A stretch of 63,653 nucleotides of DNA, the filler included, from Reclinomonas americana ATCC 50394 (lineage: Eukaryota), in assembly GCA_048213135.1 (NCBI GenBank). It is 15 parts of 15 records of this genome, joined end to end, with 100 filler letters (N's around TTAATTAATTAA, not from the genome) between each part and the next. Parts side by side here need not be neighbours in the genome. Positions count along the whole stretch, not along the records: positions 38,182 to 47,472 come from AFZH01020016.1; 14 more parts are not named here. One strand, written 5' to 3'. The translations under genes and the position numbers were made by a program. The notes below the pieces were generated by a model. That model was given only the letters and a program-made list of their open reading frames with translations. It was not told where the DNA came from and made no database searches. Positions 11,969 to 63,653 of the stretch are shown here, one piece after another (within the stretch, counting starts at the first letter, position 1; each line of letters starts with the position of its first letter).

Positions 11969-12635
11969 TTCTCTCTCTTTCTCTCTATGATCCTATTTCT
12001 GCCTCCACTTTCTCTCTCAATCCGTCCCTGCAACTACTCTTCGTACTGTGCTTTATTCTCGTTTCTGTCGATCTCTCAGGCTCTCGCTGCGAGCGCATAC
12101 CTTCTTAGTCTGTTGTTTCTTTTCCACCCTCTCTTCCTTTCTCTCTTCGTGCCTGCTGCCGCTTTCGAACTGTGTCTCACTCTCGTATCAGTCAGTCTCT
12201 TGTGCTGCGAGCGCATGCGTTCTGTGTGATCCGTCTCTTTCTCTCTTCTCTATTCTCCCTCCACATTGTTTCTCTCTTCTTGCCAGCAACCGCGTTTCGA
12301 ACTGTGTTCCACTCCTGTCTCAGTCGGTCGGTCGCTCTTGCTGCGAGCGCGTTTCTTCTATGTCTGTTGTCTCTTTTCTGCCTCCACTTTCTCCCGGTTG
12401 CGAACTGTTCTCCACTCTCATCTCAGCCAGTCACTCGTGCTGCGCGCACATTCCATTCGAGACAAGTCTTCGCTTGTTCTCCCTCTGTCCTTCTCGCTGT
12501 ATCGGCTCCCAGTTTCTCTCCTCACTTCTACATGCCTTTTCTCTCTCTCACACACACATTTTTACGCCTTCTCTCTTCTGCCTGCTGCTTCCACTACACT
12601 CTTCTCACTCGATCGCTCAGTTGCAAGCGAACACG

Positions 12636-12667
<32 letters not shown>

Positions 12668-15600
12668 CTCTCGTTCTCCAGTCACCTCTTGCTTTCTCTC
12701 CCCAGGATGCCCGTCCTCTGCTCTATGATCGTCACCGTTCTTAGTCTTTCACTCTCTGCACTTCGCGTATCCTCGATTCTCATCCAGTTCTCTTCACGTG
12801 TAACTCACCTCACGTTGCCTCATCTCTCCCCTTCATCCCTCATCCCTCCCTTCCCTCTTCCCCCCTTCCCCCTTCCCCCCTTCTGCCCTCCCTCACCCCT
12901 CCCCTCTCATCTCGACAGCGCCGCCGCCGCCTCCGAAATGTCCCCCACACCTCAACAACGCGCCCAATGGCGCCTATGGACCGTGCTCGTGCACAACCTG
13001 CACCGCGCCGTCGACGACATTTACGCCTCGTGCGAACTCGACGCCAACATTGACGGCTGCCGCGAAGTGATGCACACGCTCGATCAGTGCCACACCGACT
13101 TTTCGAATGTTGAGCGCCAGCATCCCCTCTTGTGATTGTAGCATGAGGTCTAATCGTTGGCGATGCTTGCACAGCTCATCAAGCAAATCGAGATCCAGGC
13201 CCAGTTCAACCCGCAGGCCGACAAGGGCGTGGCGTGGGACATTCGCAAGGCGTCACCGCCCGTGGTGGCGCCTCCCGCTGCGCTGCCCGTGTCGGCTGCT
13301 GGTGGATCGGGTGCGTTGATACTGGTGCGGTGATTGTTGCGAAGAGAAGCTCACTCTCAGCGTGCGCAGTGAATCTGCTGGTGCCCGGATCGCCCAACAT
13401 TCCCTCGTCGCCGACCAAGGTGCGTTTGTCGATCGGGTTCTCTTTTGGTGTTGCGTGCACGCCTCTCCTTCTGCCTCTCCCTCTTTCTCTCTCTCACTCC
13501 CTCTCTCTCTCTCTCTCNNNNNNNNNNNNNNNNNNNNNNNNNNNNNNNNNNNNNNNNNNNNTTAATTAATTAANNNNNNNNNNNNNNNNNNNNNNNNNNN
13601 NNNNNNNNNNNNNNNNNCACTCTCCTCTCTCTCCCCACTCTCTCTCTCTCTCTCTCTCCTCTCTCCCTCTCCTTCTCCTCTCCTCTCCTCCTCCTCTCTC
13701 TCTCCTCTTCTCTCTCTCCTCTCTCCCCTCTCTCCCCCTCTCCCTTTCTCCTCTCCTCTCTCCTTTTACCCTCTCTCCCCTCTCTCCTCCTCTCTCCCCC
13801 TCTCCCTTTCTCCTTCCCCTCTTTTCCCTCCCTTCTTCTCACCCTTCCCCTCCCTCCCTCCTCTTTCTCCCGCAGCCCCTTTCCCGCGCTTCCGGCAGCT
13901 ACGCGCAAGCCACCGTGTCCTCCTCTCGCAAGACCACCATCAAGAAGCTGGAGGTCGACAAGACAGGTGCGTTTCCTTCCCCTCTTCTGTCCATTTGCGT
14001 GCCTGTCCTCATCGTACCTCAGACTCGGCCACTGCTGCGGCCCCACCGCGCCCACCGCGCAAGGCGTGGGGAGCCACGTCATCGAATGCAGGCTCAGATG
14101 CCGACTCGGCATCGGCGACCGAAAGCGGCGCAGAAGCCGGCGCAGAGTCCGCGGCAACGGCGACAACGGCGACGGGTGCGAACGGCAACGCAGAGACCGC
14201 TGCCGCTGCTGCCGCCTCGTCAGGCGCTGCGTCGGGCACCGCTGCACCAGCTCCCGAGGCGACTGGCGAGAAACGTGCGTCGTCTCCACTTGTTCTTCTC
14301 CTTCGTTCATTTGCTCATCCATGCATTGCACAGCGGCGACCAAGAAGCGCGACTATGGAGAGGCAGCGCGGCGCAAGTCGGTGGGATCGCAGGCTGCCAA
14401 GGACCCCTCTGCGGCAGTCAAGGCTGGATTGGCCGCGCGGTCCGAGGAAGGTGGGAAGCAGAGGAGAAGTGACTCTGGTGTGATGTGTTGTTGACTCTGT
14501 CGTTGTGCAGACATGGAGGTCCAGTCGCTCAACTCCACCGATGGCCCACTGCCGAGTCTGGATGATGTGTTTGGCGGTCCGTCGGGCGATGGCCACTCGT
14601 GGAGTGAAATGTTGCGCATCGTGCGGAGGGGAAGAGAGTCATAACAATGCAGCCTGTCCTCGCTTTCATACTTCTCTTCTTCTCTGTACTCACCGCCCTC
14701 CCCCCTCCTTCTCCTTCTCCTCCCCCTCCTCAGGATGGCCATCACGGAGCCTAGCCCACCGCGCCACCGTCAACGCAAGCTCCACGAGCGCCTGTCGTCC
14801 CCTGAGCGGTCGCGGAAGCAGCCCGAGAACATTGAGCAAGTGCTGGCTGAGAAGCAGGTTTGCTCTGTTCCCCCGTTCTCTTCTTTCCACCATTCCTCAA
14901 CTTTGATGCCACGCCACAGAAAAAGGCCGAAGCCAATCGCAGCCGCCTGGTCAGCGAAAAGCAAGCCCGCCTGCAAGTGCAGTCGTCGAGGGTTCGTCAA
15001 CCCCACTCAGTCGCTGTTTATCTTCTCTGTCTCACATGTGCTTGCATGTCAGGTGCGTGACGTGCAGGAAAAGAACTCGACAACCGTCAAGAAGCTGCAA
15101 CAGGAGGTGGAGGAGAAACTGAGCCGGGCGGAGGAGGTATGTGATGATGATACTCTCCGTTCCTCCCTCTCTATTCATCCTTTTCGTTCCTCCCTTTCCG
15201 TTCTCCCTCTCCGTTCCTCCTTCCTCCTCCCCGTTCCTCCTTCCTCCTCTCCATTCCCCTCTCCATTCCCCCTCTCTGTCTTCCTTCCTTCTCTCCGCTC
15301 CCCCCTCTCCGCTCCCCCCTCTCCATTCCCCCCTCTCCATTCCCCCCTCTCCATTCCCCCCTCTCCATTCCCCCTCTCCATTCCCCCCTCTCCATTCCCN
15401 NNNNNNNNNNNNNNNNNNNNNNNNNNNNNNNNNNNNNNNNNNNTTAATTAATTAANNNNNNNNNNNNNNNNNNNNNNNNNNNNNNNNNNNNNNNNNNNNG
15501 TTCCCTCCTCTCCGTTCCCTCCTCTCCGTTCCCTCCTCCATTCCCTCCTCTCCCTACTTGCGCTTCGCTCACCTCCCATTCCCCCTCTCCGTACCCCCTC

Positions 15601-22796: not shown

Positions 22797-25700
22797 GGAG
22801 AAGCATGGGTGAGAGACAGGGCAGACAGCAAAGGCGAGAGAGTGTGAGAGTGAGAGACAGCGAGAACGCAAATAACTGAGGGCGGAAGTCAGATAAAGTT
22901 GGTGAGAATAAGAGCGAGAGCCAGCAAGAGCGAGAGACGGTAAGAGCGAGAGACGGAAAGAGCGAAAGACAGCTAGAGAAAACAGGGGCGAGAATTACCG
23001 AGAGGGAGAGGGTGAGTGCAAGAGAGAGTGAGGCAGAGAGAGAGAGAGAAGCAAGCGATTGGAAGGGCGCGAGACAAGGAGGCAAGAGACGGAGAGACAA
23101 AAAGGGCAAGAGATAGAGCGAGAGAGAGGCGCTGATGAAATACATAACTAGAATGAGAGTGTGAGGGCAGGAGACAGCAACTGCGAAAGAGAGAGAGAGT
23201 GCGAGAGAGAGAGCGCGAGAACGGAGAGAAAGACATGCAAGGAGAGGACTGCGAGAGGTAGAGAGACTGAGAGGCAGAGAGCGAGACAGAGACAGCAAGG
23301 GCAAGAGACAGAGAGAGAGAGAGAGAGAAAGAGAGAGCGCTGATGAAATACAGCAACTAGAATGAGAGTGTGAGGGCAAGAGACAGAGGAGGGTTAGAGT
23401 AAGGGCGAGAAAGGATGAGCGCAAGAGAGACAGAGACGGCAAGAAAGTGAGAGCGGACAAGAGATACAGTATAAACAAAAGATGACGAGGGCCATGAAGT
23501 ATGCGCAACTCTCAATCGAGGCCGCCAGTGTGTCAAAACCACTCTCCACCACCACCTGTGCCGCTGAATCGAGCATGCGCAACAGGCGGGCATACGTGTT
23601 GCGTGCCAGCGATTCTGTGAGAAGGCGACACTGCCATTCAGCAAACAAGGACATGAGCACTGAGGTTTCAGCACTCGCACCTCTTCTTGAGTACAGGCGG
23701 TCATTGACACTGCGTCGGCGTTTGCGGGGGGTGAACAGCTCCGGGTCGATCACGGCTGCAAAGTTGAGCGATTTCTTCGAGGAGGCTTGGTCGGGACCTG
23801 TGCGGAAAAGAGAGATCAGAGAGGGGGAAGGAGAAGGGGGAAAAGAGAGCAAAGTCGGACGCACTTAGTGCCAATGCGAGCGGGCTCTTGCCAAACATCA
23901 TCTCCGTGCCAGCCAGGGTGGCGCGACGGTGTCTCGAGTCACTCGTTTTTCTCATTTCTGTGAGGCAAGAGAGTGTGAGAGTCAAACACAAGAAGAAACA
24001 GGGAGACAGAGAAGGAGAGGGACATAGAGAGAAGAGAGAATTAAAAAGAGCGCTCCATAAAACGCGCGAAATGCACAGCATGCTCATCTGCTTGCAGAAC
24101 AGCAACTGACTGCAAGCATTGACAACTGGCAAGACTATGCGAAAAGTGAACGAGAGAGAAAAAGACTGTTATAGAGACAGAAAATAAGAGAAAGAAAGAG
24201 ACAAGTGAAGTAGAACGCTTAGAGGGGGCAACAGAAACTGCGAAAACTGATGGCGAGGGAGAAAACGAAATAGCGAGAAAGAGAGAAAGACAGAAAAGGA
24301 GGCAAAGAGTGAGAGAAGAGGGAGAAATGCACGGGGAGGAAGAATGAATGAGCTGAATGAAAGACATAAGAAGGGGAATGTCACAGAAGAGAAACAAAGA
24401 ATCATGCAAGCGGAAAGACTACAGACTCTGAAGAAGAAGTCGCACTGAGAGAGTTACACAGCGATATGTATTAAGGCAGGCCTCCTCCCTCCTCCTGCTC
24501 TACCACTGAGAGAGCGAGAGCGGAAGCGAATGAGACTTGAAGACGCAGTATAGAAACTGAGAATAACTCTGCAGGGACGAAGAAACCGCACTGAGAGAGT
24601 TACACAGCGAGATGCATTGAAGCAGGCTCTTCCCTTTTTCTGCCCTTCCCTGTACTCACTCCCGAGAGAATACTGAGAAAGCAAGAGCGGAAGCGAATGA
24701 GACATGAAGACACAGAAGAGAAACAGAGAATCGCTCATCGGAAATATTCACAGAGCGAGTTAGAATAGACCTCTCCCCTTCTCTCTCCCCTCCCTCCCCT
24801 TCTCCCTTCCCCATCCTCCCTTCCCCTCCCTTCCCCTTCGCCAAACCCACCTGACTCATCCTGCAGTTCGGCATCAATCTCACTCAACAACCGCGCCAGT
24901 TCGGAATCGGCGTCCACCACCATCGCCTTGCTGCCCGACGGTGTGGCGGGCGGCAGCATGGAAGATGGTGACCTCGACGGCGAGCGACCCATCTTGGACT
25001 TGCCGTCGAACGAGCCTTGAGAGGCTGTGTGTGTGACTCGCGGTGGTGAGCAACCCAGACGCTTCTCTCTCCCTTGCTCTCACAGCTCACCTTGCCGTCT
25101 CATGATCTCGCGCTTGTCGTGCACCCATTTGAGGAGATTCCAGAACGAGTTCACCGCCTTGAAGGTGGACCACAAAGCGGGGGTCAGTCGCGAATATCCA
25201 CACGCCACACTCTCCATTCTCTCTCTCCTTCTTTCCAACTGCACATACTCTGTTTGGCACAATTGTCCACGCACCTTGAACAGATCAATGTTGCGCTCGC
25301 TGGTGCGCGGCTCAATAGCCCCGCACGCAATCAGCGGTTCCATCAAATCCAAAAACTGCATGCGCATCGCCACATCCAACAACGTCTCGCCCGTCGTGGC
25401 GTCCACACAGTCGAGCCAGCACCCGGTTTCGGCCAGCATTCGCGCTCCCTGTTCTCACCATTCCAGTGAGAAAAATGAAAAGAAAAGGACACTTGCCCTC
25501 CTCACGCAACATCGACATTCTCCATCAGCAGCGCCTGGTGCAGCGGGTTGGACTGCTCGGGCGCATTGACCTTGGCGCCGTGCGACACGAGATTTTCGAG
25601 AACATTCACTGGCGCACCGGCACGCAGCGCCAGCAGCAGCGGTGTGTGGGTGGCCGGTGTGCCTGGCGGGTTGAGATCGGCGCCCGACTCCACCAACAGC

Positions 25701-28700
25701 TCCAGCATCGGCATGTCCTGGAACATGATGGCAATCATGACGCACGTGTGCAGTCCGTACGACAGGCGAATCGGCTTGTCGGGGTCGGCGCCGGCCTGCA
25801 GGAGGGCGCGCGCGAATTCCAGCTGGCCCTTGTAGGTGGCGATGAACAGGGCGCTGCACGAAGAAGTGAGTGTGAGGAGGTAGGGATAGAGGGGAGGCGG
25901 GGTGGGGGTGGCGCAACTGCTGCTCCGGCACCGGCTCCGACTCGTCGAGGTCTATCAAGAACATGGGTCGCGTGCACATGACGTTGGGGTCGGCGCCAAT
26001 GGCCAGCAGTTCTTGCAGCACCTCAAAGTGGCCGCGGACGCAGGCCTCGTAGACGGGGGTCGAGCAGCATTTGGATTGTGCGTCGGGATTGGCACCGTAC
26101 CTGGAAGTGTGTGAGAGATGGGCAAAGGGGGAGAAGGAGGGGGTGGGAGGGGCTCGCAACTCGAGGAGCATCTTGACGACTTGGACGTGGCCGTTTTCGA
26201 CGGCGGATTGGAGGGGGGTTTTGCCGTATTCCTTTTCCCAGACGTTGACTTTGCACTCTGCCATTTAGGGAAAGGGGGTGGAGAGAGAGAAGGGGTTGTG
26301 AGGGGAAGGGAGACAGGGGGAGAGGGAGAGGGGGTAGGGGAAGGGGATGTGAGAAGAAGGGAGAAGGAGAGGGGAAGGATAGGGAGAAAGAGGGAGAAGG
26401 AGAGAGAAGGAGAGTGAAGGAGAGAGAGGAGAGAGAAGGAGAGAGAAGGAGAGAGAAGGAGAGAGAAAGAGAGAGAAAGAGAGAGATGGAGAGAGAGAGG
26501 GAAAGGGAAAGGGAGAGGGAGAAAGAGGAGAAAGAGAAGGAGAGAAGGAGAGAAGGAGAGAAAAGGAGAGAGAAGGAGAGGAGAAGAGAAGGAGAGAGAA
26601 GAGAGAGANNNNNNNNNNNNNNNNNNNNNNNNNNNNNNNNNNNNNNNNNNNNTTAATTAATTAANNNNNNNNNNNNNNNNNNNNNNNNNNNNNNNNNNNN
26701 NNNNNNNNGAGAGAAAGAGAGAGAAAGAGAGAAGGAGAGAGAAAGAGAGAGAAAGAAAGAGACGGAGAGAAGGAGAGAGAAGAGAGAAAGGAGAGAGAAG
26801 GAGAGAGAGGGAGAGACAAGGAGAGACAAGGAGAGAAGGAGAGACAGGGAGAGAGAAGGAGAGAGAAGGAGAGAGAAGGAGAGAGAAGGAGAGAAGGAGA
26901 GAAGGAGAGAAGGAGACAAGGAGACAAGGAGACAAGGAGAGAGAAGGAGAGAGAAGGAGAGAGAACAGGGAGAGAAGAGGGAGAAGAGGAGAGAGCAGAG
27001 GTGGGAGAAAGAGAGAAATGGAGTGAGAAAAAGACAGAGAATGGAGGAAGGGAAGAAGAGGAGAGAGAAACGAGAGGAGAAGAAAAGAGAGAAGAAAGAG
27101 AAAGAGGCAAGAAATGCAAGAGAGGCAACAGAAGCAAGAAAGACAACAGAGGCAAGACATACAACAGAGGCAAGAAAGACTAGAGACGCAAGAACGACAA
27201 GAAGGACAATAGAGACAATAAACACGAGAGCGACAAGAGAGGCAAGAGAGACGAAAGAGAAGCAGAAACCACAGAGACAACTAGACCAACAAAAGAGACA
27301 AGAGAGGCAAGAAAATGACAAAACACACGAATTGAGACAACAGAGACAACAGTGACAAAAAGGAGAAGGAGAGAGACTAGTGCAGCCCTCTCTTTTGCCG
27401 TGCTCCCTTCTCTCAATCCCTTCCCCTTCTCCCTCCTTTCCCTCTCTTCCCCTTTCCCCACTCCCTTTTCCCGATTTCACGCAACTCGCACTCAGCAACA
27501 CATCCACCATCTCCACATCGCCTCGCGCACACGGAATGTGCATCACACTCAATCCCTTCTTGGTCTGGATGCGCACCTTGGCGCCATGACTCAGCAGCAA
27601 GCGCGCCAGCTCGTGCTGCCCGCGTGCACACGCAAAGAACAGCGGGGTCTGATTGTCGTTGTTGACCGTGTTGACGGCGGCGCCGCGGTGAATGAGTGCG
27701 CGCGCCAGTGCCACATCGTGCGACGGGTGCTTGCAGGCCAGGATGAGGAGCGTGTCGCCCAGCGAGTTGCGCGACTCGACGAGATCCGACGAGAAGAACG
27801 AGTGCTTGTTGAGAATGGCCTCCACCAGCTCCAGATCGCCGTCCGAGACTGCATTGCGCAGTGCTGTTGGCAAAGAAGTGAGTGATCTTTCTTCTCCACG
27901 CCTTTTTCTCCTTCTTAAACGCACAAACTGCTGCGGCCTCCAACTCCCGCTCATCATCGACCTCCACAATGCCGCTGACTTGCCCATTGTCGCTGTCACC
28001 GTCCTCGCTACCTACTCCACTACCCGCCTTCCCGCCTGACGCCGCCGTGCCGTCCGTCACCATTTCGCGACCCTCCTGAATGCGCGTGCGCTGGTCGGCC
28101 GTGGCCAGCAGGTGCGCCGTCACGGCGAGGAACATTTCCGATACGGCCTGGCCGGAGCGGGCGCTGGTCTCCGAGATCCACAGCATGTCGTGGCGGTCGC
28201 AGAAATCGCGAATGGTGCTGGTGGGGATGACGCGGTCGCCGAGGTCGCATTTGCAGGAGATGAGGAAGGAGACGCAGTGGGGTGGGGCGGAGCGGGTGCG
28301 CATTTCCACGAACTGCGAAGAGGGGGAAGGGTGAGGAGAAGGGAGATGAAGGGGGAAGAAAGGGGGAAGGGAGAGGAAGGAAAATGAGAAACTTGTGAAT
28401 GAAAAAGGGGAACAAACGGAGCGACTGAATGCGATGGAACGAATACAAGGAGAGGAAGGCCAGGACGTTTGTTATCTATTGCAAACCTGCTCCAGTGCCT
28501 GGAACGAGGCCTCGTTGCACTGATCAAACACAAAGAGGAGGGCGTCGGCCACGCGAATGTACTCCTCGTTCATGTGGCGATATCGTTCGTGGCCGGCGGA
28601 GTCGAGGATGTAGAGTTTACATTGGGAGGTGCCGATCTCCAGGCTCTTGGACTGCGTGGCGGGGGGAAAGGGTGAGGTGGGGCTAATAAAGAGAACGAGA

Positions 28701-36912: not shown

Positions 36913-38657
36913 GTGGGAAAGGGAGAAGGCGACTGTTGGACAGAGTACTCTGTGCTGTGGTGAATGAAGCACGTTGTTTTACTCGAAGTCGGCTTTCTCT
37001 GATATCGTGGACGAGAGGAGGTCCATGAGAAGCGAAGTCGGTGTCGATAGGTGCAATGCTTTGCTTCCTTCAGTCAGAGTCACATGCAGCATTCGTCAAA
37101 GGCATCGACAACATGCAGTTTTCACCATGCTTTCTCTGATTTGAAGAGAGAAGGCCTCGAGGAGACAGCAAGGTGAAATCCTCTCGAGGCCAACATGTTA
37201 ACACGCGTTTGATTGGCTTAATTTAAATTAAGCTTTGTCTCCTGAAAGGGAAGATGACTGTTGGAGAAGTAATTATGTGTTTGTATATTGTTGGTGTGCC
37301 AAGGTCATTGTCGGCAAGGGATTTGTGGGCGTTTATCGCATTATCGGAGTGTGGTGAATGAGACGTGAATGGTGTTTTGTTTTCGTCAATTCGAAACCGG
37401 CCTCCGAAGTCAATATCGGAAGTTGCAATGCTGTGCTGCTTTCTTGGGTCAGTGCCAAAAGCAACACAGGCCTAAGACATCGACAGCATGCAGTCTCCCA
37501 CCTTGCTTTCTCTGGTTTGAAGAGGGAAGGCCAATAAAAGCTGTTTGTCCTGCATCACTTTTCTCAGGGATGCTATCTGAGGGCAATGACCCTCACGGCT
37601 ACCACCGTGCGCATCACCAACCACTGAGCGAGGTGCGCGCGACGCAACTGCGCGCAATGCGGCATGCGAGGGCCGGAAAAAACATTCCGTTTCGTGGTCA
37701 TCGCTCGGGTGTGTTTTTGGTGGTGTTTTGCTGATGTTTGTGTGCGCAGGAACTTGCCTCCGTTGCGTGGAAGTGTGTGGGAGAGAGAGGAAGGGGGGGG
37801 GGGAGGGGGAAGGGAGGGAAGGGGTGAGAGAGTGAATGAGTGAGTGCTGTGAGTGTGAGAGTGAGTGAGGGAGAGTGTGAGAGTGAGAGTGAGTGAGTGA
37901 GTGAGAGAGTGGGTGAGTGAGTGAAGGAGAGAGTGAGCGAGTGAGTGTGTGTGTGTGAGTGAGTGAGTGAGTGAGTGAGTGAGTGAGTGAGTGAGTGAGT
38001 GAGTGAGTGAGTGAGTGGGTGAGTGAGAGTGAGTGAGGTGAGTGAGTGAGTGAGTGAGTGAGTGAGTGAGTGAGTGAGTGGNNNNNNNNNNNNNNNNNNN
38101 NNNNNNNNNNNNNNNNNNNNNNNNNTTAATTAATTAANNNNNNNNNNNNNNNNNNNNNNNNNNNNNNNNNNNNNNNNNNNNGAGAGAGAGAGAGAGAGAG
38201 AGAGAGAAGAGAGAGAAAGCGCGCACAGTGGAAATTTCGACAAACGCAGATGATCCCCAGCTGGAGGGAAGGAAACGATGGATCACGGAGAGAGACAGAC
38301 TGACAAACTGTAAGTCCGACAGACAGGCAGCAAGACAGAGAAAGAGACAGAACAGGAGAGAGTAAGGTAAGAGAGGATGACCCAGCGGACGCGCTGTAGG
38401 CTGCTTGTTAGAGAGGGGTGATCAACACCTGGAAGAGTGCGAGATACGACAGGCGAGAGAGCGAGTGAGAGAGCGAGTGTGAGTGAGATAGAGCAGCGCT
38501 GAGATCAGGCGCACAACAGACACTCTCTCTGTATGTGGCACTCCAACAGTTATCGCATTCCGTCGCACACTGTTACTCGCTCGCATGTCGTCCTGCTCCT
38601 AGTTTCTCACTTCCTTCCCCCTTCCTTTCCCCTGCCTCCCCCCTACCCCCCATACAG

Positions 38658-39141
38658 CCCCAAGACATCATCGCCGCAGAGGACTCGGTGCGTCGCGCCA
38701 ACCGCAACGTCGGCATCATGGTGTCGATCACCGACAAGAAGCGCGCGGAGACGCGGAGACGGCTGGAGAGTTGCGATGTCGGATCCCTTTGTTTTTGCTG
38801 AGCGCCTGTCTCATGCGTGTGATGCAGGGGCGGAGGACACCGAGGACCACATTCAGTTCCTCAAGTCGCAGCTCCTGCGACTGCAGGACCAGCGGTGGCG
38901 ACTGACGCGGCAGATTAGTGCGGATCAGGAGTTTGTGGAGGAGTGGGAGGCGATGGAGCCCATACGGCAGGCCATGGAGGCGCACAGGGCGCTGGAGGTG
39001 AGAAGAGCGTGGGGAGGGGTGAAGGGAGGAAGGGGTGGGCAGGTTGTTGACTTCTGGTTGTGCTGCGTGCAGGAGGAGCAAACTGCGCAGATTGTGCGGC
39101 TGCTGGGGGCGTTGGAGGATGCTGGTGTTGTGGTAGTATAA
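38658..39141 (+). CDS. Hypothetical coiled-coil protein, 3' exons only
   Basis: Three exons joined by GT-AG introns give PQDIIAAEDSVRRANRNVGIMVSITDKKRAETRRRLE-RAEDTEDHIQFLKSQLLRLQDQRWRLTRQ...RALE-EEQTAQIVRLLGALEDAGVVVV*. Confidence 0.55.
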
Positions 39142-39887
39142 GTCGCATGTACTTTTATCACTGTATGGCGGTTTCTGGAGAAGTCGCTCGTGAGATGGGT
39201 GCGTGCGACAGTTCTGTGACTTGTCGTCATGTTGTTCGTGATGCGTTCTTTTGCATTGACCCACTTCTGTGAGAATGAGTGCCGGGGATTGATTTGCATC
39301 ACGACTTCACACTGCTTGTTTAACTCATGTGTGCCATCTCTTCTTCACATGGGCGATGACCTCTGTTGTTGTCGCCATGGACGCGTCAGCATGCGCAGGG
39401 GCATGTTTTTCGTCTCCTCCCTCTGTCCCTCTCCTTCTCCTGGCAAGCAGCTCCCCATCTGGCTCCTCCTACACTCACGCATAATTCTGGTGTTGTTACT
39501 TCTCCTCCACTCCGCCGTTGCTTCCTCCGCTGCGTGATCTTTTTTTCGAACAAGATCAGCGCGCAGTTGGTGCTTGCTCTCGTCGTGCATGCTTGACTCC
39601 GGCGCACAGACACCTTGCCACAGAGAGTCAAACTGTGCGATGATGCGTTTGCGGTACCGGTGGGTTCCTCTGGTAATAAATCGGAGGAAGAAGGGGTGTC
39701 GAGTGCTGACGCATGTCGTCTTGTATGCGTTGACAGGTTCTTTGATGGGCTTGTCGGATATATGAATGTAGTGACTGCACTTGGCGGTGCAGCGGGGTGT
39801 GGTGACAAGGGTGCTTGACGGAAGAACCCGACAAACCCGACGACAGATGACGAGTTTCAGTTCATCGCACGTCAAATCGCACGCACA

Positions 39888-39924
39888 ATGTCGGTGCGTC
39901 GTTGTCACTCTACACACTTGCGCG

Positions 39925-39959
<35 letters not shown>

Positions 39960-42900
39960 GCTCTTTCTATTCATGCATGTTCCCTCGCATCATTCTTTTG
40001 CGTTATCTTGTTTGATCGCTTCCCTCCTCTCACGCCCCACTCTGTCACCTCTCACACGCCGCTCACTCTCCCGCCCTCTTTTCTCGTGCAGTTCTCTGTG
40101 AATGTGAGTGCGGCGCATGAGTCGTCGCTGTCGGTGGTGGTGGAGGGCATGTCGGCCATGTCCACTCTCGCGGACTTGCTGTGCGAGGCCACACGCCTGC
40201 TGCGTGAGAAGAGTGGAGATGGGGAGATGGAGATCGTGGGGGTGGAGAAGCCGATGCCATTTGACTTGGAGGACATGAGCGGAGCAAAGTTGAAATCACT
40301 CGGCATCAACTCATCCACTCACCTTGTTGTCCGTCTGACGCTTGGCGTGGCGCCACAGTCGAAGGGAGGGAGTGAGAGTGGGAGTGGAAGGTTTGTGTGT
40401 GTGGGATGTGTTTGTGAAACATATCTGTGCAATAGATGCATCTAACTCTCAGGTCTCACAGCAACTCGGAGCGAGTGACTCGGTTTGTTTTCCTTGCCTT
40501 CGTCACCCTCCCTGTTTGTTCTCCACTTGGTTTGAGTCTTTGCTTAATGTGTTTGTGTGCACGGACAGCATGATCGACTCGCAGCGCATCAACATGGCCT
40601 TTGAGGTGGTGGAAGAGGCGATGCGTCTGCGCTGTCAACACGCACTGGCACAGTTCAGCCGCGATCATGCCGACTTTGATGTGCGGTCGTGGGCAGCAGA
40701 TCTGTGGTCCCCACGAATGCACCATGGCGACATCAAAATATGGCGTGATCGCCATGCTCCACTCCGCCCTGGGCGAGTCAAGTTGTTTGAGGAGAAGCAG
40801 CCGGAAGCGTTAGCCTGGCGAGCGGCTTTTGATGCCGATCCTACGTCCGACCCTCCGTGCGACGGTTTCGACCCAACGGCTCTCGTTTCCATCATGCTAT
40901 ATGGTGGATTTGTTCTGGATGACGGTCGCAGGCTGCTACTAGTTGGCGACACTGATGAGCGTGATGCCGTGGTAGAGCTGCGTGATGTGAGGAATGAGTT
41001 GGCACACTGTAAGCCCGAGTGGACAGATGCCAAAATTAGTCGGCATCTTGGTGACGGCGGCGTCTTCCTCTCCATTCTCTCACGCCTTTGGTTGACAGTT
41101 GACGAATTTGTGCGACTCAGTGCTCGCATACTCGAGGCACGTCACGCTCGACTCGTCGTTGATACATTCGAGGAGCGACTGAATCGACTGGCCATGCGTG
41201 AGCTGTCTTTCTACCAGCGCGACGAGAGTGTGCGCAAGGACATGCAGCTGTATGTGCCGCTGTCGTGCTCACGAGATCGTGACATCTCATCGAAAGACAA
41301 GATGATGGATCTGTTGACGGAGGTGGATGTTTTCCTCCTCGATTCAAACACCACGCAGCGAGTGCTGGTGCTCTTTGGCGACAGTGGAGCCGGCAAAACC
41401 ACCACCATGTCGATGCTCGCTGAGAGAGCATGGCGGCAGTGGCAGACGAGAGAAAGCAGACGATTGCCTGTGCGTGTTCCACTTGGTGCTCTGCGCAATG
41501 CCGATGAGCGACTGTTGGAGGAGGCATTGGAGCGACTGTCACCCGAATTGGGATTGGAATCGGATGTGCGACGGTTGAAGGAGGAACCATTGCTGCTGTT
41601 GCTTGACGGGTACGACGAGTTGTATCGTGGTGTGAATCTGTTTGTCAAGAACCAGCTGGATGTGTGTCGAGATGTGAAAGTGATAATCACCTGTCGTGGC
41701 GATTACGCACTGACGGCACTGGGTGGAGTAACGCAGTATCCACAATACTTTTCCCCAACAGATGCACGCGGACAGTTGTGCCCGCAGGAGCTGACTGAAC
41801 GACACATTGCGCCGTTTAACACGGAGCAGGTTGACGAGTACTTTTCTCGCTTAGTGCAAGTGGGTGGTGACGATGGCGGAAAAGTGCGATGGTCGACTGC
41901 CGAGGAGTACATTCGTGCACTGAAGGGTGTGCATGGACTGGATGCACTGGTGTCGAATCCGTTCATGCTTTCAGTGGTGGCTCGTGTGTTGCCAGAGTTG
42001 GTGGCGAGTGGTGTGCAGCGACCAACTCGGTGTGATGTGTTTGACAGATTCGTTCGACAGTGGACTGACAGGGAGCGCTTGAGGCAAGCACGACTCGGTG
42101 CAGAGCGAGTGCCGAGTGAGGAGACGTGTCTCTCGTTCTGTGAGGGACTGGCGCGGTTGATGCATGAGAGGAATGTGGTGCGTGTCTCTGAGACGGAGAA
42201 TCGGTCACATGATAGTGAAGTGGAGGGAGATGATTTCAGAGGCGCGCCGCGAGCCTTGCGACCAGCTGAAGAGGGACCGTTTGACAAGTTCCTCGGTCAC
42301 AAGAATCAACATGTGCGAGTGTGTTGTCCGATCGTACGACGGTTTGGGACGGATGAGTGGGGTTTTGTGCATCTGTCGTTGTTGGAGCACTGTGTGGCTC
42401 GACATGTGTTTGCGTGGGAGACGTGGGATGAGGAGAGGAAATTGACAATGCAAGATGTGCAGCAGCATGTGTTGGCAGTGCGGCTGCTGAACGATCGACC
42501 TTCGTTGGTGGAGCAGATGGCCGAGGTGGTGCGACGGTCTCCTGCACTGCAAGCGAGACTGTGGGAGGTGATTGAGCTGTCACGTAAAGTAGATAGTCGG
42601 CGATTGTCGATGGCCGCAGCGAATGCAGCAACGGTGTTATGTTTGGCTGAAGTGTCGTTTAGTGGGCGAGATCTATCTGGTGTGCGAGTGAGAGATGCGG
42701 ATTTGAGGGATGCGGTGATGCACAGGACGGTGTGGAGGGGAGCGGATTTGCGAGGGGTGAACATGTGCATGGCATATGTAGAGGAGGCGGATTTCATGGG
42801 GGCAGATGTGACGGGTGTAAAGTGGCCGAGGAAGCCGATGGTGGGGCATACTGGTGCAGTGTTATCCATTGCTGTTACGCCTGACTGTAAGCACATTGTT

Positions 42901-44838
42901 AGTGCCAGTGACGACAGCACAGTGCGCGTGTGGTCTGTGGTGACTGGAGAGGAAGTGCGGCAGTTGGTTGGACATTGTGGAAGGGTGTGGTCTGTCGCCG
43001 TTACTCCCGATGGTCAGCATGTAGTGAGTGGTGGCGAGGACATGACAGTTCGTGTGTGGTCACTCGCGGGTGCAGAGGAGTTGCGACGGCTTCTGGGGCA
43101 CATTGGATGGGTTTTGGCGGTAGTTGTCACGCCTGACGGGCAGCAGATTGTGAGTGGCAGTTATGACAAAACTGTTCGTGTGTGGTCGCCGGCGAGTGGA
43201 GAACAGTTACGATTATTAGAGGGCCACTCTTCATCAGTTCGATGTGTCGCTGTTACTGCAGATGGTCTGCATATCGTATCTGGGAGTTCGGACAGAACCA
43301 TTCGATTGTGGTCGCTCGTGAGCGGTGAAGTAGTGCGACAACTTACAGGACACACAGGAGGTGTACGAGCTGTCGCTCTCGCTTCTAATGGGCAGTATAT
43401 CGTGAGTGGGAGTATGGATAACACTGTTCGGATATGGTCACTTGTAACTGGACAAGAAGTGAGACGGCTGGAGGGGCATTCTGGGGCTGTGCGATCTGTT
43501 GCAGTCACCCTTGATGGCCAACACATTGTGAGCGGAAGTGAGGATAAGACTGCGAGGAAGTGGTCCCTCGCGAGCGGGCGAGAAGTCAGACAATTGCATT
43601 GGCAGTTTGGCGAGTTATATTCTGTCGCCGTTACCCCCGATGATCAGCAGGTTGTAAGCGGTGGTCAAGACTGCACCGTACGAATGTGGTCACTTGGGGA
43701 TGCTGACGATGTTCGTCGACTCGCCGGGCATGCTGGCCCTGTCACGTCTATCGCCGTGTTTCCTGGCAGTCAGTACATTGCAAGTGGGGGCATTGACATG
43801 ACGGTGAGAGTGTGGTCGCTGGCGAGTGGAGAAGAACTTCGAAGGCTGCAAGGGCATTTTGGAAAGGTGAACTGCATCGTCGTCTCTTTCGATGGTACAT
43901 ACATTGTAAGTGGGAGTGAGGACGAAACAGTGCGTGTGTGGTCACTAGCGAGTGGGAAACAAGTGCTACTGTGGATGGAACCTCATACTGTGAAGGCTGT
44001 CGCGATCACTACCGATGGCCAGTTCATTGTAACTGGTGGGGGGGTAAAAGTGCGAGTGTGGTCGCTGTCAAGCGGACAACTAGTCCGAGAGCTAGAGGGA
44101 CACGAAGGACTTGTGAACTCGGTCGCCTTCATTCCCGATCTCATTCCCGATTGTCAGCACATTGTCAGTGGGGGCGCGGACAACACTGTGCGATTGTGGT
44201 CACTGGCAAGTGGAGTAGAAGTGCAGCGGTTCAAGGAGCACACTGATTCGGTGATATTTGTCTCTGTCACTCCCGATGGTCACTACGTTATCAGTGCTGG
44301 TGTGGACAACATCGTTCGACTGTGGTCACTGTCGAATGGACAATGTCTGAAACAGTGGACTGGGTGTGCTAGCCAAGAACATTCTATTTCATTAGCTCCT
44401 GACGGCCAGCATGTTGTGAAGGGCAGCGACACAGCGACTGTTCGTGTGTGGCAGGACATGGTGGATAAGAGCAGTGGCAAGTCCGTGCGCGTATCACTTC
44501 TTGCCGCTGCTGCGTCTGCGTCTGTCCATGCTGTGGACGATGTCGCCACGCCTGAGCTGTTGATTCGCCCATTCAATGACGCGATTCACATTCTGAGACG
44601 AAATCGTGATGGAGAGGTTGTGGTGAAGGTTCTTGGTCTTAAATCTAGGGTTAACGAACCGTGGCGCACCGTTTCCAGTGTCAGAAAACCCAGTGTCTAC
44701 ATTGCTAGCCGTGACGAACTGGGCTGCCTGTCAGATACCGTCCCTCAACGTCCCATTCGCCAAATCTTCAACCTAGATGAGGTAGCTGTGTCTGCAGTCG
44801 TCCGCATGGGAACAATGACTCAAGGTGTGCTTGTGTGA
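39888..44838 (+). CDS. NLR-like STAND protein: ubiquitin-like domain - HEPN-like domain - NACHT - pentapeptide repeats - ~13 WD40
   Basis: Exons 39888-39893, 40092-40390 and 40569-44838. Ubl-like FSVNVS..STLADLL..LKSLGINSSTHLVVRL. HEPN-like FDPTALVSIM..ELRDVRNELAH. Walker A LFGDSGAGKTT (41377-41400), Walker B LLLLLDGYDE, then KVIITCR and LVSNPFML. Pentapeptide AAANAATVL..FSGRDLSGVRVRDADLRDA..GADLRGVN. GH..V.SVAVTPDG..IVSG..D.TVRVWS repeats span ~42844-44450. Confidence 0.92.
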
Positions 44839-44962
44839 ATGACAGATTGACCGAGAGCCACGTGAGATATATGGTATGCTTGACGATCTGTGACAGTACA
44901 TGCGTATGGTTGGCGAATCAGGGCAGCGTCCACTCACTATCCAACTCCTCCAACTCTCCCTG

Positions 44963-46075
44963 CTACTCTTCCACACTTTCCTCGTCCTCATCACCACCGT
45001 CATCAATCACCATCGGTCTGTGAAACGTCAACCTCGTCGCCGCCGCCGCCACCGCCTTCTCCGTCGACCATCGCACCTCGATCGACAACCGCACAAACTC
45101 GGTCTCATTCGGCTGCGTGGCATGCACGAGATGTGGACCAAACACCGCCACGTCCCCCACACCGAAATCTGCGACAACAAAGCCAAGTGAACGATGAGCG
45201 ATTCTGGGCTCAACCTCACAACACTCACTTGTGGACTGCCACTCGCCCCCCACTGTCCGTGAAAATTCATCCATATCGGTACCCCACCACCCGCTGCGGT
45301 CGCCGTCGTCACCAAGCCGCTGCGTGGTGGAAGAGGGAGGGAGAGTAAGCAGTCAGTGACAACGTAACCTCTCCCTCATCTCCCGACGCACCGTCTTCCC
45401 ATACGACTCATGCAACTCGGCAAACGTAGAGCCACTTGCGCACACATGCGAACCCGGTACAAATGCCAGCGCACCCATCTCCTGAGTGACAGCACCTGCA
45501 CAGGACATGAACATGACGCGTCGCAAGAGATTTCCACAACACCGCTCACCCAGCGGAATCCACGTGGTTAGAAGTGGCTCCACTTGGCCGACGTAGATCT
45601 TGTCCATGTGAATGCCCTGCACTCACGCAAGCGCAGTCAGCTAACGAGAATCCATGGTTGAGGCTAGAAGAAAAGCGAACCGTGAACTCTCCTCGTCGCA
45701 CGCCACGCAACCACCGAAAGTCGGTGACGACGAGGTGGTCATCGTCATCATCGTCACCAACGTGAAGTAAGCGGCTCATGAGGTCGACCTGAACAAAACA
45801 AGGATAAGTGAGAAGGATGAGGCGAAGGGAAATGAATCGAGTGTTTCAGTAAGAGAGAGAGAGAGAGAGAGAGAGAGAAGAATGAGAAAGAGCATTTGAA
45901 AGAAGAAAAGTTTTAAGAGGAGCAGTGCAAGGATGGGAAGGTGGGAGACAGACAGATTGATAGATAGACAGCAGACAGACAACAGACAGACAGACAGACA
46001 GACACATGCAGACAGACAGACAGGCAGACACACAGAGAGGGAGAGAGACAGACATGCAGAAAAAGAGAAACGAAC

Positions 46076-46106
<31 letters not shown>

Positions 46107-46790
46107 TGACAGACAGAAAGACAGACAGAGAAAGAGCAAGAGAGACAGACAGGCAGACAGGCAGAAAGACAGACAGACAGATAGACAGGCAGACAGACAG
46201 ACACACAGACACACAGACAGAGAAATTGAGAGTGAGATAGAATTGAAGATAAAAAGGCAGATGCAAAGCAGGGAGAAAGAAGGACAAAAGTTAACGAATG
46301 AGTGAGAGAGCGAGTGAAATCATGCACAAGATGTCCGACCTTTGGTGTCACCACTCACCAATCGCTGAGACTCCACCACCCGCTGCAAAGCGGGATCATA
46401 TGCTAATCTTTGCTGCGACAGCAGGCTCACCGAGCGAGATGAGGCTGCGAGGAATAGTGGCAAGTGAACACAGAGACAGCTGGGTGTAGAGTGGGATAAT
46501 GAGTGATAGCAATGAGAAAGACCAGAGAGAGGTAAAGCGAACGAAGAGCGAAAGAGAAAAGAGGACGAGAGAACATGCGCAATATAGAACGTAGAATGCA
46601 CGTGTGTGCTTGTGGGTAGCTTTGAGCAAGGTCTCTTCTCCTTCCCCCTCAAGCACGCAACTGACATCATAGCGCCCACTCTCAACATCAACCACCGCGT
46701 CGTGCTCCTGCAGGAAGCGCATCACAACTTGACGTGCCTGCAGCACGCGGTCGACGGGGAGCAGCTGGCGCACAACCGCGAAGCCGTGAT
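44963..46790 (-). CDS. Phytanoyl-CoA dioxygenase (PhyH)-family 2OG-Fe(II) oxygenase, 5'-partial
   Basis: HGFAVVRQLL; WLRGVRRGEFT-GIHMDKIY (HxD motif); LTTWIPLG; GALAFVPGSH; GDVAVFGPHLVHAT (distal His); RLSIEVRW. Confidence 0.85.
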
Positions 46791-47247
46791 CTGTGGCGAC
46801 AACGGGAAAGAGAGTGTCAACAACGGTACAGGGTCACAGGTTCTTTCTTGCAGCTCTTCTCTTGCAACGGGGAGAATGTAAGATGGAGGAGAGCGGGAAC
46901 AGTCAGAGGGAGCATTAGCAAGAGACGAGTCTGCAAAGCATGCATGCGAATGCCGGCGAGTCGTGCGTAATGAGTGAGTGACTGAGAGAGCTCTCTAGAG
47001 AGAGGGAGAGAGGGAGAGAGAGAGAGAGAGAGAGGAGAAGAAGGAGAAGGAGAAGAAGGAGAATAAGAGTGACAGAGAGAAAGGATGAGTGACAGAACAA
47101 GATTGACTCTGACTGCAATTATTGTATGCATGTGGTGTGTGCGTGAGAGAGAGGAGGGGGAGGAGAAGGAGGAGGAGAAAGAAGAGTGACAGAGAGAAGG
47201 AGGGTGACGGAATAAGATTGACTCTGACAGCAATTGTTGCATGCATT

Positions 47248-47279
<32 letters not shown>

Positions 47280-47394
47280 CGAGGGGAAGAGCGGTTAAAG
47301 AGAGAGAATGAGATCGACTCCGACAGCAATCATGGAGTGTGCGAGAGAGAGAGAGGAGAGAGAGCAAAAGAGAAGGGCGAGATAGGGCGAGAGA

Positions 47395-47438
<44 letters not shown>

Positions 47439-47800
47439 GAAGGAGAGAGGAGGGCGGAGAGAGAGAGAGACGNNNNNNNNNNNNNNNNNNNNNNNNNNNN
47501 NNNNNNNNNNNNNNNNTTAATTAATTAANNNNNNNNNNNNNNNNNNNNNNNNNNNNNNNNNNNNNNNNNNNNCACTCACTCCCTCCCTCCTTCCCTCCCC
47601 CTCTCTCATTCACTCACTCACTCACTCACTCACCCGCTCACTCACCCACTCACTCAACCACTCACTCTCTCTCTCTCACTCACTCACTCTCTCTCTCTCA
47701 CTCACTCACTCACCCCTCTCCGTCCCTCCTCTCTCTCACTCACTCACTCACTTCACTCCCTCACCCGCTCCCTCTCTCCTCCCTCCCTCCCTCAATCAGC

Positions 47801-62432: not shown

Positions 62433-63653
62433 AGCTCTGGCTGACCTCTTCCGAAATCGCTGATCTCGCCCTGCCGGGCCTGCCGACCTCGCGCAAGAAC
62501 GTCCTCGCTCTCGCCGAGCGCGAGGATTGGGGCGCGGTTCGCCAGCCTCTGCCGGCAACGTGACGGCCGGGGCGGTGGTCTGGAGTACCACGTCTCCCTG
62601 CTGCCAGCGACGGCGCGTGCGGAGTACTTTGGACGGGCTAGTGGCGTACGGCCGGAAGAGGCGGCGTCTCTGGCCCTGCAGGCCGCACCGGACCTGGATA
62701 TCGCCGGTCCGGCGGCCGGCGAGCAGCTCGACGCGCGCATCGCCGTCCTCGGGGCGCTGCGCGCCTTCCAGCGCACTGCCGAGTTGCAGCAAACCGTCGC
62801 GATCGCCCTCTTCGTTGATCTCTATAACCTCGGCAGGGCCGACGTGCCCGGCTGGGTGCGCGAACGGGTCCGGCGCCTGTCGACCCGCACGCTGCTGCGT
62901 TGGATCACGGCCACGCGCGAGGGCGAAACCCAGCGTCTGGCGGTCGACCGTGGCGCCTCCCGCCGCGGCAAAGGCGTGCTGGAGGCCGGCGCCGATGGCC
63001 AGCTCAAGGCCTTCATGCTCGCGCTCGTCGCGCAGAACCCGCTCTACACCGCCCGGCAGATCTACGAGGCCTGCCTCGGCCGCTATCCGCAGGGCGTTGC
63101 GCTAGAAGGCGAGATGCGGTCGCTTCCCGGCCAGCGCGCCTTTGAAATCGCGTTGAAGCGCTGGAAATCCGAGCTTCAGACCGAGCTCCTGGCGCTGACG
63201 AACCCCGACGCCTTCGTCTCGAAGACCCGCATTGCCGGCTCCTACACGCATCTGACCACGGCGCTGAACGAGCTCTGGCAGATCGACGCCTCGCCGGTCG
63301 ATGCGCTTTGCCTCGACGGCCGTCATTCCGTCTATGCCTGCATCGATATCTTCTCGCGTCGGCTGATCCTGCACGTCTCGAAGACGCCGCGGTCTGAGGC
63401 GGTGCAACTGCTGATGCGCAAGGCCTTGGTCGCCTGGGGCGTGCCGGACAAGGTCAAGACGGACAACGGTTCGGACTTCGTCGCGAAGGCGACCCGCCGC
63501 CTGTTCGCCGCCCTGCAGATCGAGCACATCACCTCCGCGGCGTTCTCGCCCTGGCAGAAGGGGCCGGTCGAACGTGTGATCCGCACCTTCCAGACCGATC
63601 TCGGCCGCACGCTGCCGGGCTTCATCGGCCACAGCGTCAGCGATCGCAAGGTG
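62429..63653 (+). mobile_element. Mu-like phage transposase A (Mu-type DNA-binding domain + DDE integrase core), 3'-partial, with a one-base frameshift near 62530
   Basis: The N-terminus VKLWLTSSEIADLALPGLPTSRKNV..RDGRGGGLEYHVSLLP is Mu repressor/transposase-like. The catalytic core reads NELWQIDASP..IDIFSRR..WGVPDKVKTDNGSDF..SPWQKGPVERVIRT..LPGFIGHSV. The contig has no introns or microsatellites and shows bacterial high-GC codon usage. Confidence 0.9.

Follow-up and report, generated by a model that had tools for sequence, protein, structure and literature searches.

NLR-like receptors of the STAND class (signal transduction ATPases with numerous domains) carrying swappable N-terminal effectors are now viewed as one immune principle common to organisms from bacteria up to animals, and within this picture unicellular eukaryotes have been explored least. 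The gene described here is a candidate receptor of this kind from Reclinomonas americana ATCC 50394. It was found in a stretch of 63,653 nt (the window) that consists of 15 joined parts, and lies in the part at positions 38,182-47,472, which corresponds to AFZH01020016.1. Its predicted product (P0001) combines a NACHT domain, pentapeptide repeats and WD40 repeats with an N-terminal domain that is a candidate HEPN ribonuclease (RNase). Among the closest described systems are HEPN-NACHT proteins of animals and bacteria. Animals, including cephalochordates and cnidarians, have NACHT proteins to which a HEPN of the Swt1 clade (CXorf38) or of the DZIP3 type is fused (PMC3710099), and in cephalochordates and cnidarians the CXorf38-type domain has been described as joined to either NACHT or DEATH (PMC3710099). 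Anthozoans were reported to encode 17-83 DZIP3-HEPN-NACHT proteins per genome (PMC8260672). In bacteria, N-terminal HEPN domains are combined with STAND nucleoside triphosphatases (NTPases; PMC3710099), and bacterial NACHT proteins include HEPN among their effectors and pentapeptide repeats and beta-propellers among their sensors (10.1101/2022.07.19.500537). Naegleria, dictyostelids and Daphnia have been described as having active Swt1 HEPNs of the bacterial type that stand alone as proteins (PMC3710099). The initial annotation of the locus had drawn attention to HEPN-NACHT fusions in animals and HEPN-STAND fusions in bacteria, and this background is borne out by PMC3710099, PMC8260672 and bioRxiv 10.1101/2022.07.19.500537.

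P0001 resembles each of these systems in part. Like the animal HEPN-NACHT proteins, in which HEPN is read as an effector RNase within a switch for immunity or apoptosis (PMC3710099), it would carry an N-terminal HEPN on a NACHT; however, its N-terminal domain shows no detectable sequence kinship to theirs in a phmmer search of 1.84 billion representative proteins, and P0001 adds pentapeptide and WD40 repeats. With regard to the bacterial anti-phage proteins that join HEPN to STAND or NACHT modules, the HEPN-like domain matches bacterial Swt1-family HEPNs best, whereas the gene itself is eukaryotic, with candidate introns and eukaryotic neighbours, and none of the PADLOC models matched it at E<=10. 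A third comparison is with the Podospora HET-E/NWD-type proteins, in which an N-terminal effector and a NACHT are likewise followed by many WD40 repeats; P0001 differs in its pentapeptide segment, in the absence of tandem repetition at the DNA level and in its effector. Our literature search did not recover any description of a HEPN domain on a NACHT-pentapeptide-WD40 chassis, and the order Ubl (ubiquitin-like)-HEPN-NACHT-pentapeptide-WD40 does not occur among the 87 listed members of the family. What is new is the assortment of domains, the parts themselves being known from animals, fungi and bacteria and the type of system being well described; the candidate HEPN sequence is unusually isolated.

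Our preferred interpretation, to which we assign a probability of about 0.6, is that the gene encodes an NLR-like STAND receptor with an Swt1-type HEPN effector that would be activated by oligomerisation; its HEPN fold, its activity as an RNase, its proximity-driven activation and its role in immunity or cell death are assigned by analogy. The main open frame covers 40342-44838 on the plus strand (1498 codons), and its first ATG, at 40570, opens a product of 1422 residues. In this product a NACHT with intact motifs is followed by pentapeptide and WD40 repeats, in the order of the NACHT-pentapeptide-WD40 family to which the protein belongs. The NACHT NTPase (41359..41850, +; residues ~264-427) was detected by Pfam NACHT (PF05729) at E 1.7e-9, with 38.2 bits against a cut-off of 26.7. 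Both its Walker A (GDSGAGKT at residue 270, 41377-41400) and its Walker B (LLLLDGYDE at residue 342) are intact. The pentapeptide-repeat segment (42637..42837, +) matches Pfam Pentapeptide at E 3.5e-7 (30.1 bits, cut-off 20.2) in two stretches, the first at residues ~691-720, and the WD40 repeats (42838..44457, +) match at E 3.9e-116 in 12 stretches, with 13 VRVWS-type motifs at a 42-residue period. The architecture given in the initial annotation, a NACHT with pentapeptide repeats and some 13 WD40 repeats behind it, therefore holds, all three being above the Pfam cut-offs and the repeat number being 13 by motif. These 13 repeats probably form two beta-propellers, the presumed sensor of the protein.

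The divergent Swt1-like HEPN candidate extends over 40576..41094 (+), or residues ~3-175, and comprises E15-x3-R19, the FDPTALVSIM helix, an insert at residues 52-86 and R141-N-E-L-A-H146. FDPTALVSIM was located at residues 100-109 (40867-40896) and ELRDVRNELAH at residues 136-146 (40975-41007), in agreement with the initial annotation, and the intact RxxxxH that it had placed at 40990-41007 is found exactly there, as R141..H146. This RNELAH stretch (40990..41007, +) is an Rx4H motif with a polar N after the R, at a predicted helix end that is followed by a loop. The bare pattern RxxxxH occurs 11 times in P0001 compared to about 3.8 expected from composition, and eight of these copies coincide with the R.L.GH that is part of the WD40 repeats. 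To judge from these counts, the bare motif is no more than chance, and information resides only in its sequence context. A further claim, that the region before the NACHT is a helical one of about 200 residues, stands as regards its almost wholly helical prediction, but its last part (~190-262) aligns to a linker of the chassis family. With weak phmmer scores, residues ~190-262 match the pre-NACHT linker in several family members, so that the candidate effector is better taken as residues ~1-175 than as all 200.

The sequence context of the motif points to the Swt1 clade. HEPN_Swt1 (PF18731) was the sole Pfam family to match the 227-residue N-terminal piece at E<=10 (E 0.0014, 19.3 bits). As a reference, 12 Swt1-family HEPNs were found among 401 sampled Pseudomonadota genomes and aligned (A1); hhalign against these 12 domains gave an alignment of 49 columns with both motifs of the initial annotation colinear (E 0.0017). 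A larger profile of 132 sequences, made of the 12 Swt1 HEPNs and 120 further solo Swt1 HEPN proteins, scored 11.4 bits on the domain compared to a maximum of 8.4 in 2000 shuffles, 1397 of which returned scores. As a negative control, the 87 NACHT-family proteins scored <=1.8 bits with this profile and <=4.6 with the smaller one. In a language-model atlas, 21 of the 30 nearest clusters fell within the set that bears the PF18731 label, which 20% of the members of the listed cluster have; the top score was 0.94, and HEPN_DZIP3 appeared further down.

Conservation was read from a MAFFT alignment (A2) of the domain with 37 Swt1-HEPN rows, about 24 of which are of one alphaproteobacterial type, so that the counts are not independent. 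R141, A145 and H146 are kept in 37/37 rows each, L26, W46 and L105 in 36/37 each, D153 in 33/37 and L137 in 32/37. R19 (30/37) and E15 (24/37) are kept as well, E15-E-A-M-R19 being aligned with an ENSIR-type motif in a manner that depends on the alignment. The HEPN superfamily has been characterized by Ex3[KR], by Rx4-6H with a polar residue after the R, by the position of this motif at a helix end followed by a loop, and by an inter-helix insert (PMC3710099). The first hallmark is matched by E15-x3-R19 and the second by R141-N142..H146. In a model guided by A2, helix 128-145, the polar N142, E15-R19 and the low-confidence insert 52-86 likewise fit these published features. Taken together, these results make it plausible that the N-terminal domain is a divergent Swt1-clade HEPN with an intact catalytic-type motif.

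A number of results weigh against this assignment. The Pfam match lies below its cut-off (19.3 compared to 27.5 bits) and covers about 35 residues (129-163, on profile positions 74-107 of 115), and the hhalign probability is only 15.7%. Three positions typical of the family are lost in A2: residue 113 is G here and W in 36/37 rows, residue 157 is S here and R in 37/37 rows (R158 is adjacent), and position 45 is L here and W in 30/37 rows. Homologues of the domain were not recovered either. A word-indexed search with residues 1-260 returned 1880 candidates, none of which scored; phmmer against the 1.84 billion representatives returned a single match, P0090; and in a scan of Joint Genome Institute (JGI) metagenomes the pattern was present in 90 stretches, with 0 confirmed. 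Furthermore, the single-sequence AlphaFold model of the domain was unusable, with a predicted local distance difference test score (pLDDT) of 38.5, and our literature search did not find activity data for any member of the NACHT-pentapeptide-WD40 family. P0090 itself was judged spurious as a domain homologue, as it is an internally repeated protein of 994 residues that was matched in 11 stretches. For the same N-terminal domain, a sequence search of the PDB gave 0 matches, as did NCBIfam, and PADLOC models gave none at E<=10.

These points are also the strength of the main rival explanation, which takes the first ~175 residues for a helical domain peculiar to the lineage, with an adaptor or regulatory function and a chance resemblance to Swt1 HEPNs. 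The short, sub-threshold Pfam match, the hhalign probability, the 11 copies of RxxxxH in P0001, the loss of the family W113 and R157, structural matches at noise level (see below) and the missing domain homologues would all be expected under it, and a category "NACHT N-terminal helical" has been listed for bacterial NACHT proteins (10.1101/2022.07.19.500537). On the other hand, four semi-independent measures (Pfam, the language model, hhalign and our own profile) agree on both family and register, Ex3R and RN..AH align unforced at a distance of about 125 residues, and the negative controls, shuffles as well as the 87 family proteins, score far lower. A non-HEPN helical domain is on this balance unlikely, although it is the alternative to be taken most seriously; the rival readings discussed here overlap in part. 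The initially proposed HEPN assignment is thus upheld by concordant Pfam, hhalign, shuffle, language-model and hallmark evidence, each support being weak, and is held back by scores below cut-off and structural matches at noise level. The comparison with Swt1-like HEPN profiles that the initial annotation had suggested came out in the same divided way, with E 0.0017 and both motifs aligned in hhalign, but with the low probability given above.

Structure prediction adds consistency to the HEPN assignment. The model guided by A2 reached a pLDDT of 68.1 and a predicted template modelling score (pTM) of 0.59, with values of 70-85 for the core helices and below 50 for the insert 52-86, and contains the helix 128-145 followed by a loop. 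The Foldseek comparison to the PDB that had also been suggested gave no match at E<=0.001; the list was headed, at E 0.99, by 4rgp, the structure of the HEPN protein Csm6. In a second structure search, carried out apart from Foldseek, seven HEPN structures were among the 50 entries listed: Csm6 4rgp (7.0; 118), AbiF 8vz6 (6.4; 149), the yeast Swt1 C-terminal domain 4pqz (6.3; 120), Cas13 6vrc (6.2; 115), Cas13 7os0 (5.7; 120), MtlR-like 3c8g (5.7; 106) and 1wwp (5.6; 92), with the two values listed for each in brackets. Helical bundles often give values of this size, and a HEPN alignment had guided the model, so these predicted similarities represent consistency and not a test. Homodimer predictions of residues 1-195, run without an alignment, gave 0.28 and 0.30 compared to a mark of 0.32, and carry no weight either way.

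The same residues bear on a second alternative, according to which the domain has a HEPN fold but is an inactive nuclease that would serve as an RNA-binding, sensing or docking module, as has been proposed for the eukaryotic Swt1 HEPN. The HEPN of Swt1 proper may indeed lack catalytic activity and have a function in the sensing of RNA (PMC3710099), and in P0001 the near-invariant W113 and the exact position of R157 are lost and a large insert is present at 52-86. Inactive versions have, however, been described as having lost the Rx4-6H motif (PMC3710099), whereas R, the polar N, A, H and Ex3R are intact here; moreover, the N-terminal slot of relatives of the chassis holds the enzymes TIR and PARP. 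An inactive HEPN is accordingly given a low probability, clearly below that of a non-HEPN helical domain.

Much of what can be said about the role of the N-terminal domain comes from the family of the chassis. A search with residues 200-760 of P0001 gave matches to 87 proteins, among which the top one has E 8.9e-58, 28% identity and 88% coverage; identities range over 24-31%, and coverage is 88-99% for most. By this similarity the core of P0001 belongs to a known NACHT-pentapeptide-WD40 family. The named relatives are mostly from Mortierellomycotina fungi and their Mycoavidus/Glomeribacter endosymbionts, together with a few Glomeromycota, a metagenome-assembled genome (MAG) of Legionellaceae and one EukProt protein. 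They share the order NACHT, pentapeptide, WD40 and are homologous to P0001 from the pre-NACHT linker to the pentapeptide segment, with a variable N-terminal slot in front. The position of the Walker A motif varies accordingly, from residue 34 to residue 806. None of the 87 has a detectable Swt1-HEPN; their N-termini are Arm-like (by source name only), TIR, PARP or unclassified. In P0066 the slot is occupied by TIR_2 (E 1.6e-16) and in P0042 by a PARP catalytic domain (E 7.3e-7), indicating that it holds interchangeable enzymatic effectors. By analogy, a swappable slot of this kind fits an effector role for HEPN in P0001. In a quick FastTree phylogeny of 75 NACHT regions, midpoint-rooted and with supports disregarded, P0001 is on a long branch outside the fungal/endosymbiont clade, beside metagenome proteins.

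Two further observations were made in the bacterial genomes. In MAG contigs of Mycoavidus cysteinexigens, 24 loci (L001-L024) with relatives of one NACHT-WD40 protein were found, several at contig ends, which represent a large paralogue expansion in fungal endosymbiont genomes; in one of them, L008, the N-terminal 550 residues are without a Pfam domain. In five of the 12 Pseudomonadota genomes with an Swt1-family HEPN (L025, L026, L027, L031 and L032), this domain is part of an open reading frame (ORF) of 1050-1223 residues, and predicted multidomain HEPN proteins are common within the sampled Pseudomonadota.

The distribution of the family also bears on a third alternative, namely that the gene encodes a non-immune scaffold or housekeeping NACHT-WD40 NTPase, the N-terminal domain having no bearing on defence. 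Non-immune roles have been proposed for some animal NACHT-WD proteins. The gene is present in one copy in the 63.7-kb window, without a paralogue cluster, and tblastn there recovered only the receptor gene itself, and its neighbours in the window are ordinary genes. Its WD40 repeats are also diverged at the DNA level: Tandem Repeats Finder reported 0 arrays in 42600-44838. HET-E-type WD40 repeats are highly homogenised at the DNA level, and a HET-E-like homogenisation was therefore rejected for this gene, which lacks this trait of fungal non-self NLRs. In contrast, the family is expanded in few lineages (a handful of Mortierellomycotina species, which account for many of the named proteins listed, and Mycoavidus with its 24 loci), a hallmark of conflict systems, and its N-terminal effectors, including TIR and PARP, have been swapped. 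A non-immune role was considered very unlikely, the least probable of the three alternatives.

Under the preferred interpretation, that of an oligomerisation-activated HEPN receptor, the protein would consist, from N to C terminus, of a possible short leader, a possible Ubl exon, HEPN, NACHT, a helical arm, the pentapeptide segment, 13 WD40 repeats and a tail. The WD40 and pentapeptide part would keep the protein off and recognise a ligand. Ligand binding would then permit nucleotide-dependent oligomerisation of the NACHT, and this would join the N-terminal HEPN domains, whose paired Rx4H motifs would make up an RNase site that works independently of metal ions. The cell would finally be arrested or killed through the cutting of its own RNA or that of an invader. 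A more far-reaching version, in which the effector of an NLR in a eukaryotic microbe is a catalytically active HEPN RNase of the Swt1 clade that descends from bacteria, follows a Ubl domain and has no detectable relative among the 1.84 billion representative proteins searched, is rather doubtful as a whole. If this version holds, it would place RNase-based cell suicide in the style of abortive infection, triggered through STAND oligomerisation, outside animals and bacteria. A working HEPN-RNase NLR outside animals would also be a data point for the shuffling of TIR, PARP and HEPN on a NACHT-pentapeptide-WD40 chassis across kingdoms, and would support RNA degradation as an output of NLR activation. 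At present its value is that of a candidate for testing, as it is a single gene with a sub-threshold HEPN call.

The gene as a whole reads as genuine, undamaged and eukaryotic, with introns, and its product as a switch protein of the STAND/NLR type. Bacterial contamination and a pseudogene were rejected as explanations, given an ORF that is intact over 1422 codons, candidate introns upstream and eukaryotic neighbours in the window. The 5' end is less certain. No ATG was found in the part of the main frame at 40342-40569 when the sequence was read, and directly upstream of the ATG at 40570 there is a pyrimidine tract with an AG at 40567-68. A putative first coding exon was located by eye at 38776..38997 (+), with an ATG at 38776, 74 codons and a donor GT at 38998-99 (GTGAGA); it has no significant Pfam match (best E 0.052), and it is uncertain whether it is part of the receptor gene. 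An in-frame mini-exon of 60 nt may follow at 39073..39132 (+), between AG 39071-72 and GT 39133-34, again from reading the sequence and uncertain. The candidate Ubl-like exon at 40092..40390 (+) consists of 99 codons plus 2 nt and is flanked by a pyrimidine tract with AG at 40090-91 and by GT at 40391-92. The putative intron between it and the main exon (40391..40568, +) runs from GT through a pyrimidine tract to AG, and the splice phases, as judged by eye, are compatible (2+1), the two last bases of the exon and C40569 forming a Ser codon.

Codon bias was scored for each upstream piece in three frames, with the score trained on the main exon. The first exon candidate scored +0.30 in frame compared to -0.35 and -0.33 out of frame, the mini-exon +0.49 in frame and below zero in both alternative frames, and the Ubl-like exon +0.18 in frame compared to -0.58 and -0.19; the N-terminal domain, for comparison, scored +0.29. 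This codon bias weakly supports splicing of the upstream exons onto the main exon, and translation may simply start at the ATG at 40570.

The Ubl-like nature that had been proposed for the 40092-40390 exon was not recovered in the databases, as the exon has neither a Pfam match nor a PDB sequence match at E<=10. Among its language-model neighbours, ubiquitin, Rad60-SLD and CLU_N clusters appeared at 0.87-0.89, in a range (<0.9) that by the tool's own rating counts as leads only, and 24 of the 30 matches were unnamed clusters. By eye, its alternating short hydrophobic strands and one amphipathic helix, with the end THLVVRL, are compatible with a beta-grasp. A ubiquitin-like domain in this exon can accordingly be regarded as a weak lead. 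If it is real, P0001 would share with vertebrate sacsin the presence of Ubl and HEPN on one polypeptide; both are listed for sacsin in Table 1 of PMC3710099. The HEPN of sacsin, however, is C-terminal and belongs to the HEPN-T clade, and sacsin is without a NACHT; on the side of the present gene, the Ubl is unconfirmed.

Three further segments complete the protein. The first is the helical pre-NACHT linker (41095..41358, +), where residues ~189-259 gave phmmer alignments, with weak scores, to the stretch of ~70 residues that precedes Walker A in several relatives. Behind the NACHT, a helical arm (41851..42636, +) is conserved across the NACHT-pentapeptide-WD40 family, as part of the residues 200-760 that match the 87 proteins. 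The C-terminal tail (44458..44838, +; residues 1298-1422) comprises about 125 residues and the stop at the end of the ORF, and its part at 44515-44835 gave no Pfam match at E<=0.01. The best family relative, P0003, likewise bears a long C-terminal extension, the nature of which is undefined.

The rest of the window reads as eukaryotic, on account of its candidate GT-AG introns and of ORFs for SCAPER_N, for ankyrin repeats and for the integrase of a retroelement. An ORF at 12266-13135 (+) matches SCAPER_N (E 6.3e-14), from a eukaryotic cell-cycle-associated protein family, and two ankyrin-repeat ORFs at 25455-27999 (-), with E down to 6.2e-17, are probably exons of one gene. At the 3' edge, an ORF at 62784-63653 (+) that is open at the window end carries the integrase core rve (E 5.1e-13) of a transposable element. 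Just downstream of the receptor gene, a short ORF at 44963-45274 (-) gives a sub-threshold match to the C-terminal end of phytanoyl-CoA dioxygenase (PhyH) at E 0.0086 (16.8 bits, cut-off 22); an oxygenase gene that is transcribed convergently may have one of its exons here. When the window was scanned for Rfam families and for tRNAs, there were no matches. Finally, CT/CA microsatellites and long, pyrimidine-rich tracts of low complexity were observed at 39920-39960 and 45776-46354, where they give rise to spurious "SLSLSL/CLSVCLSV" ORFs on both strands; such sequence is typical of intron and intergenic DNA in the Reclinomonas americana genome.

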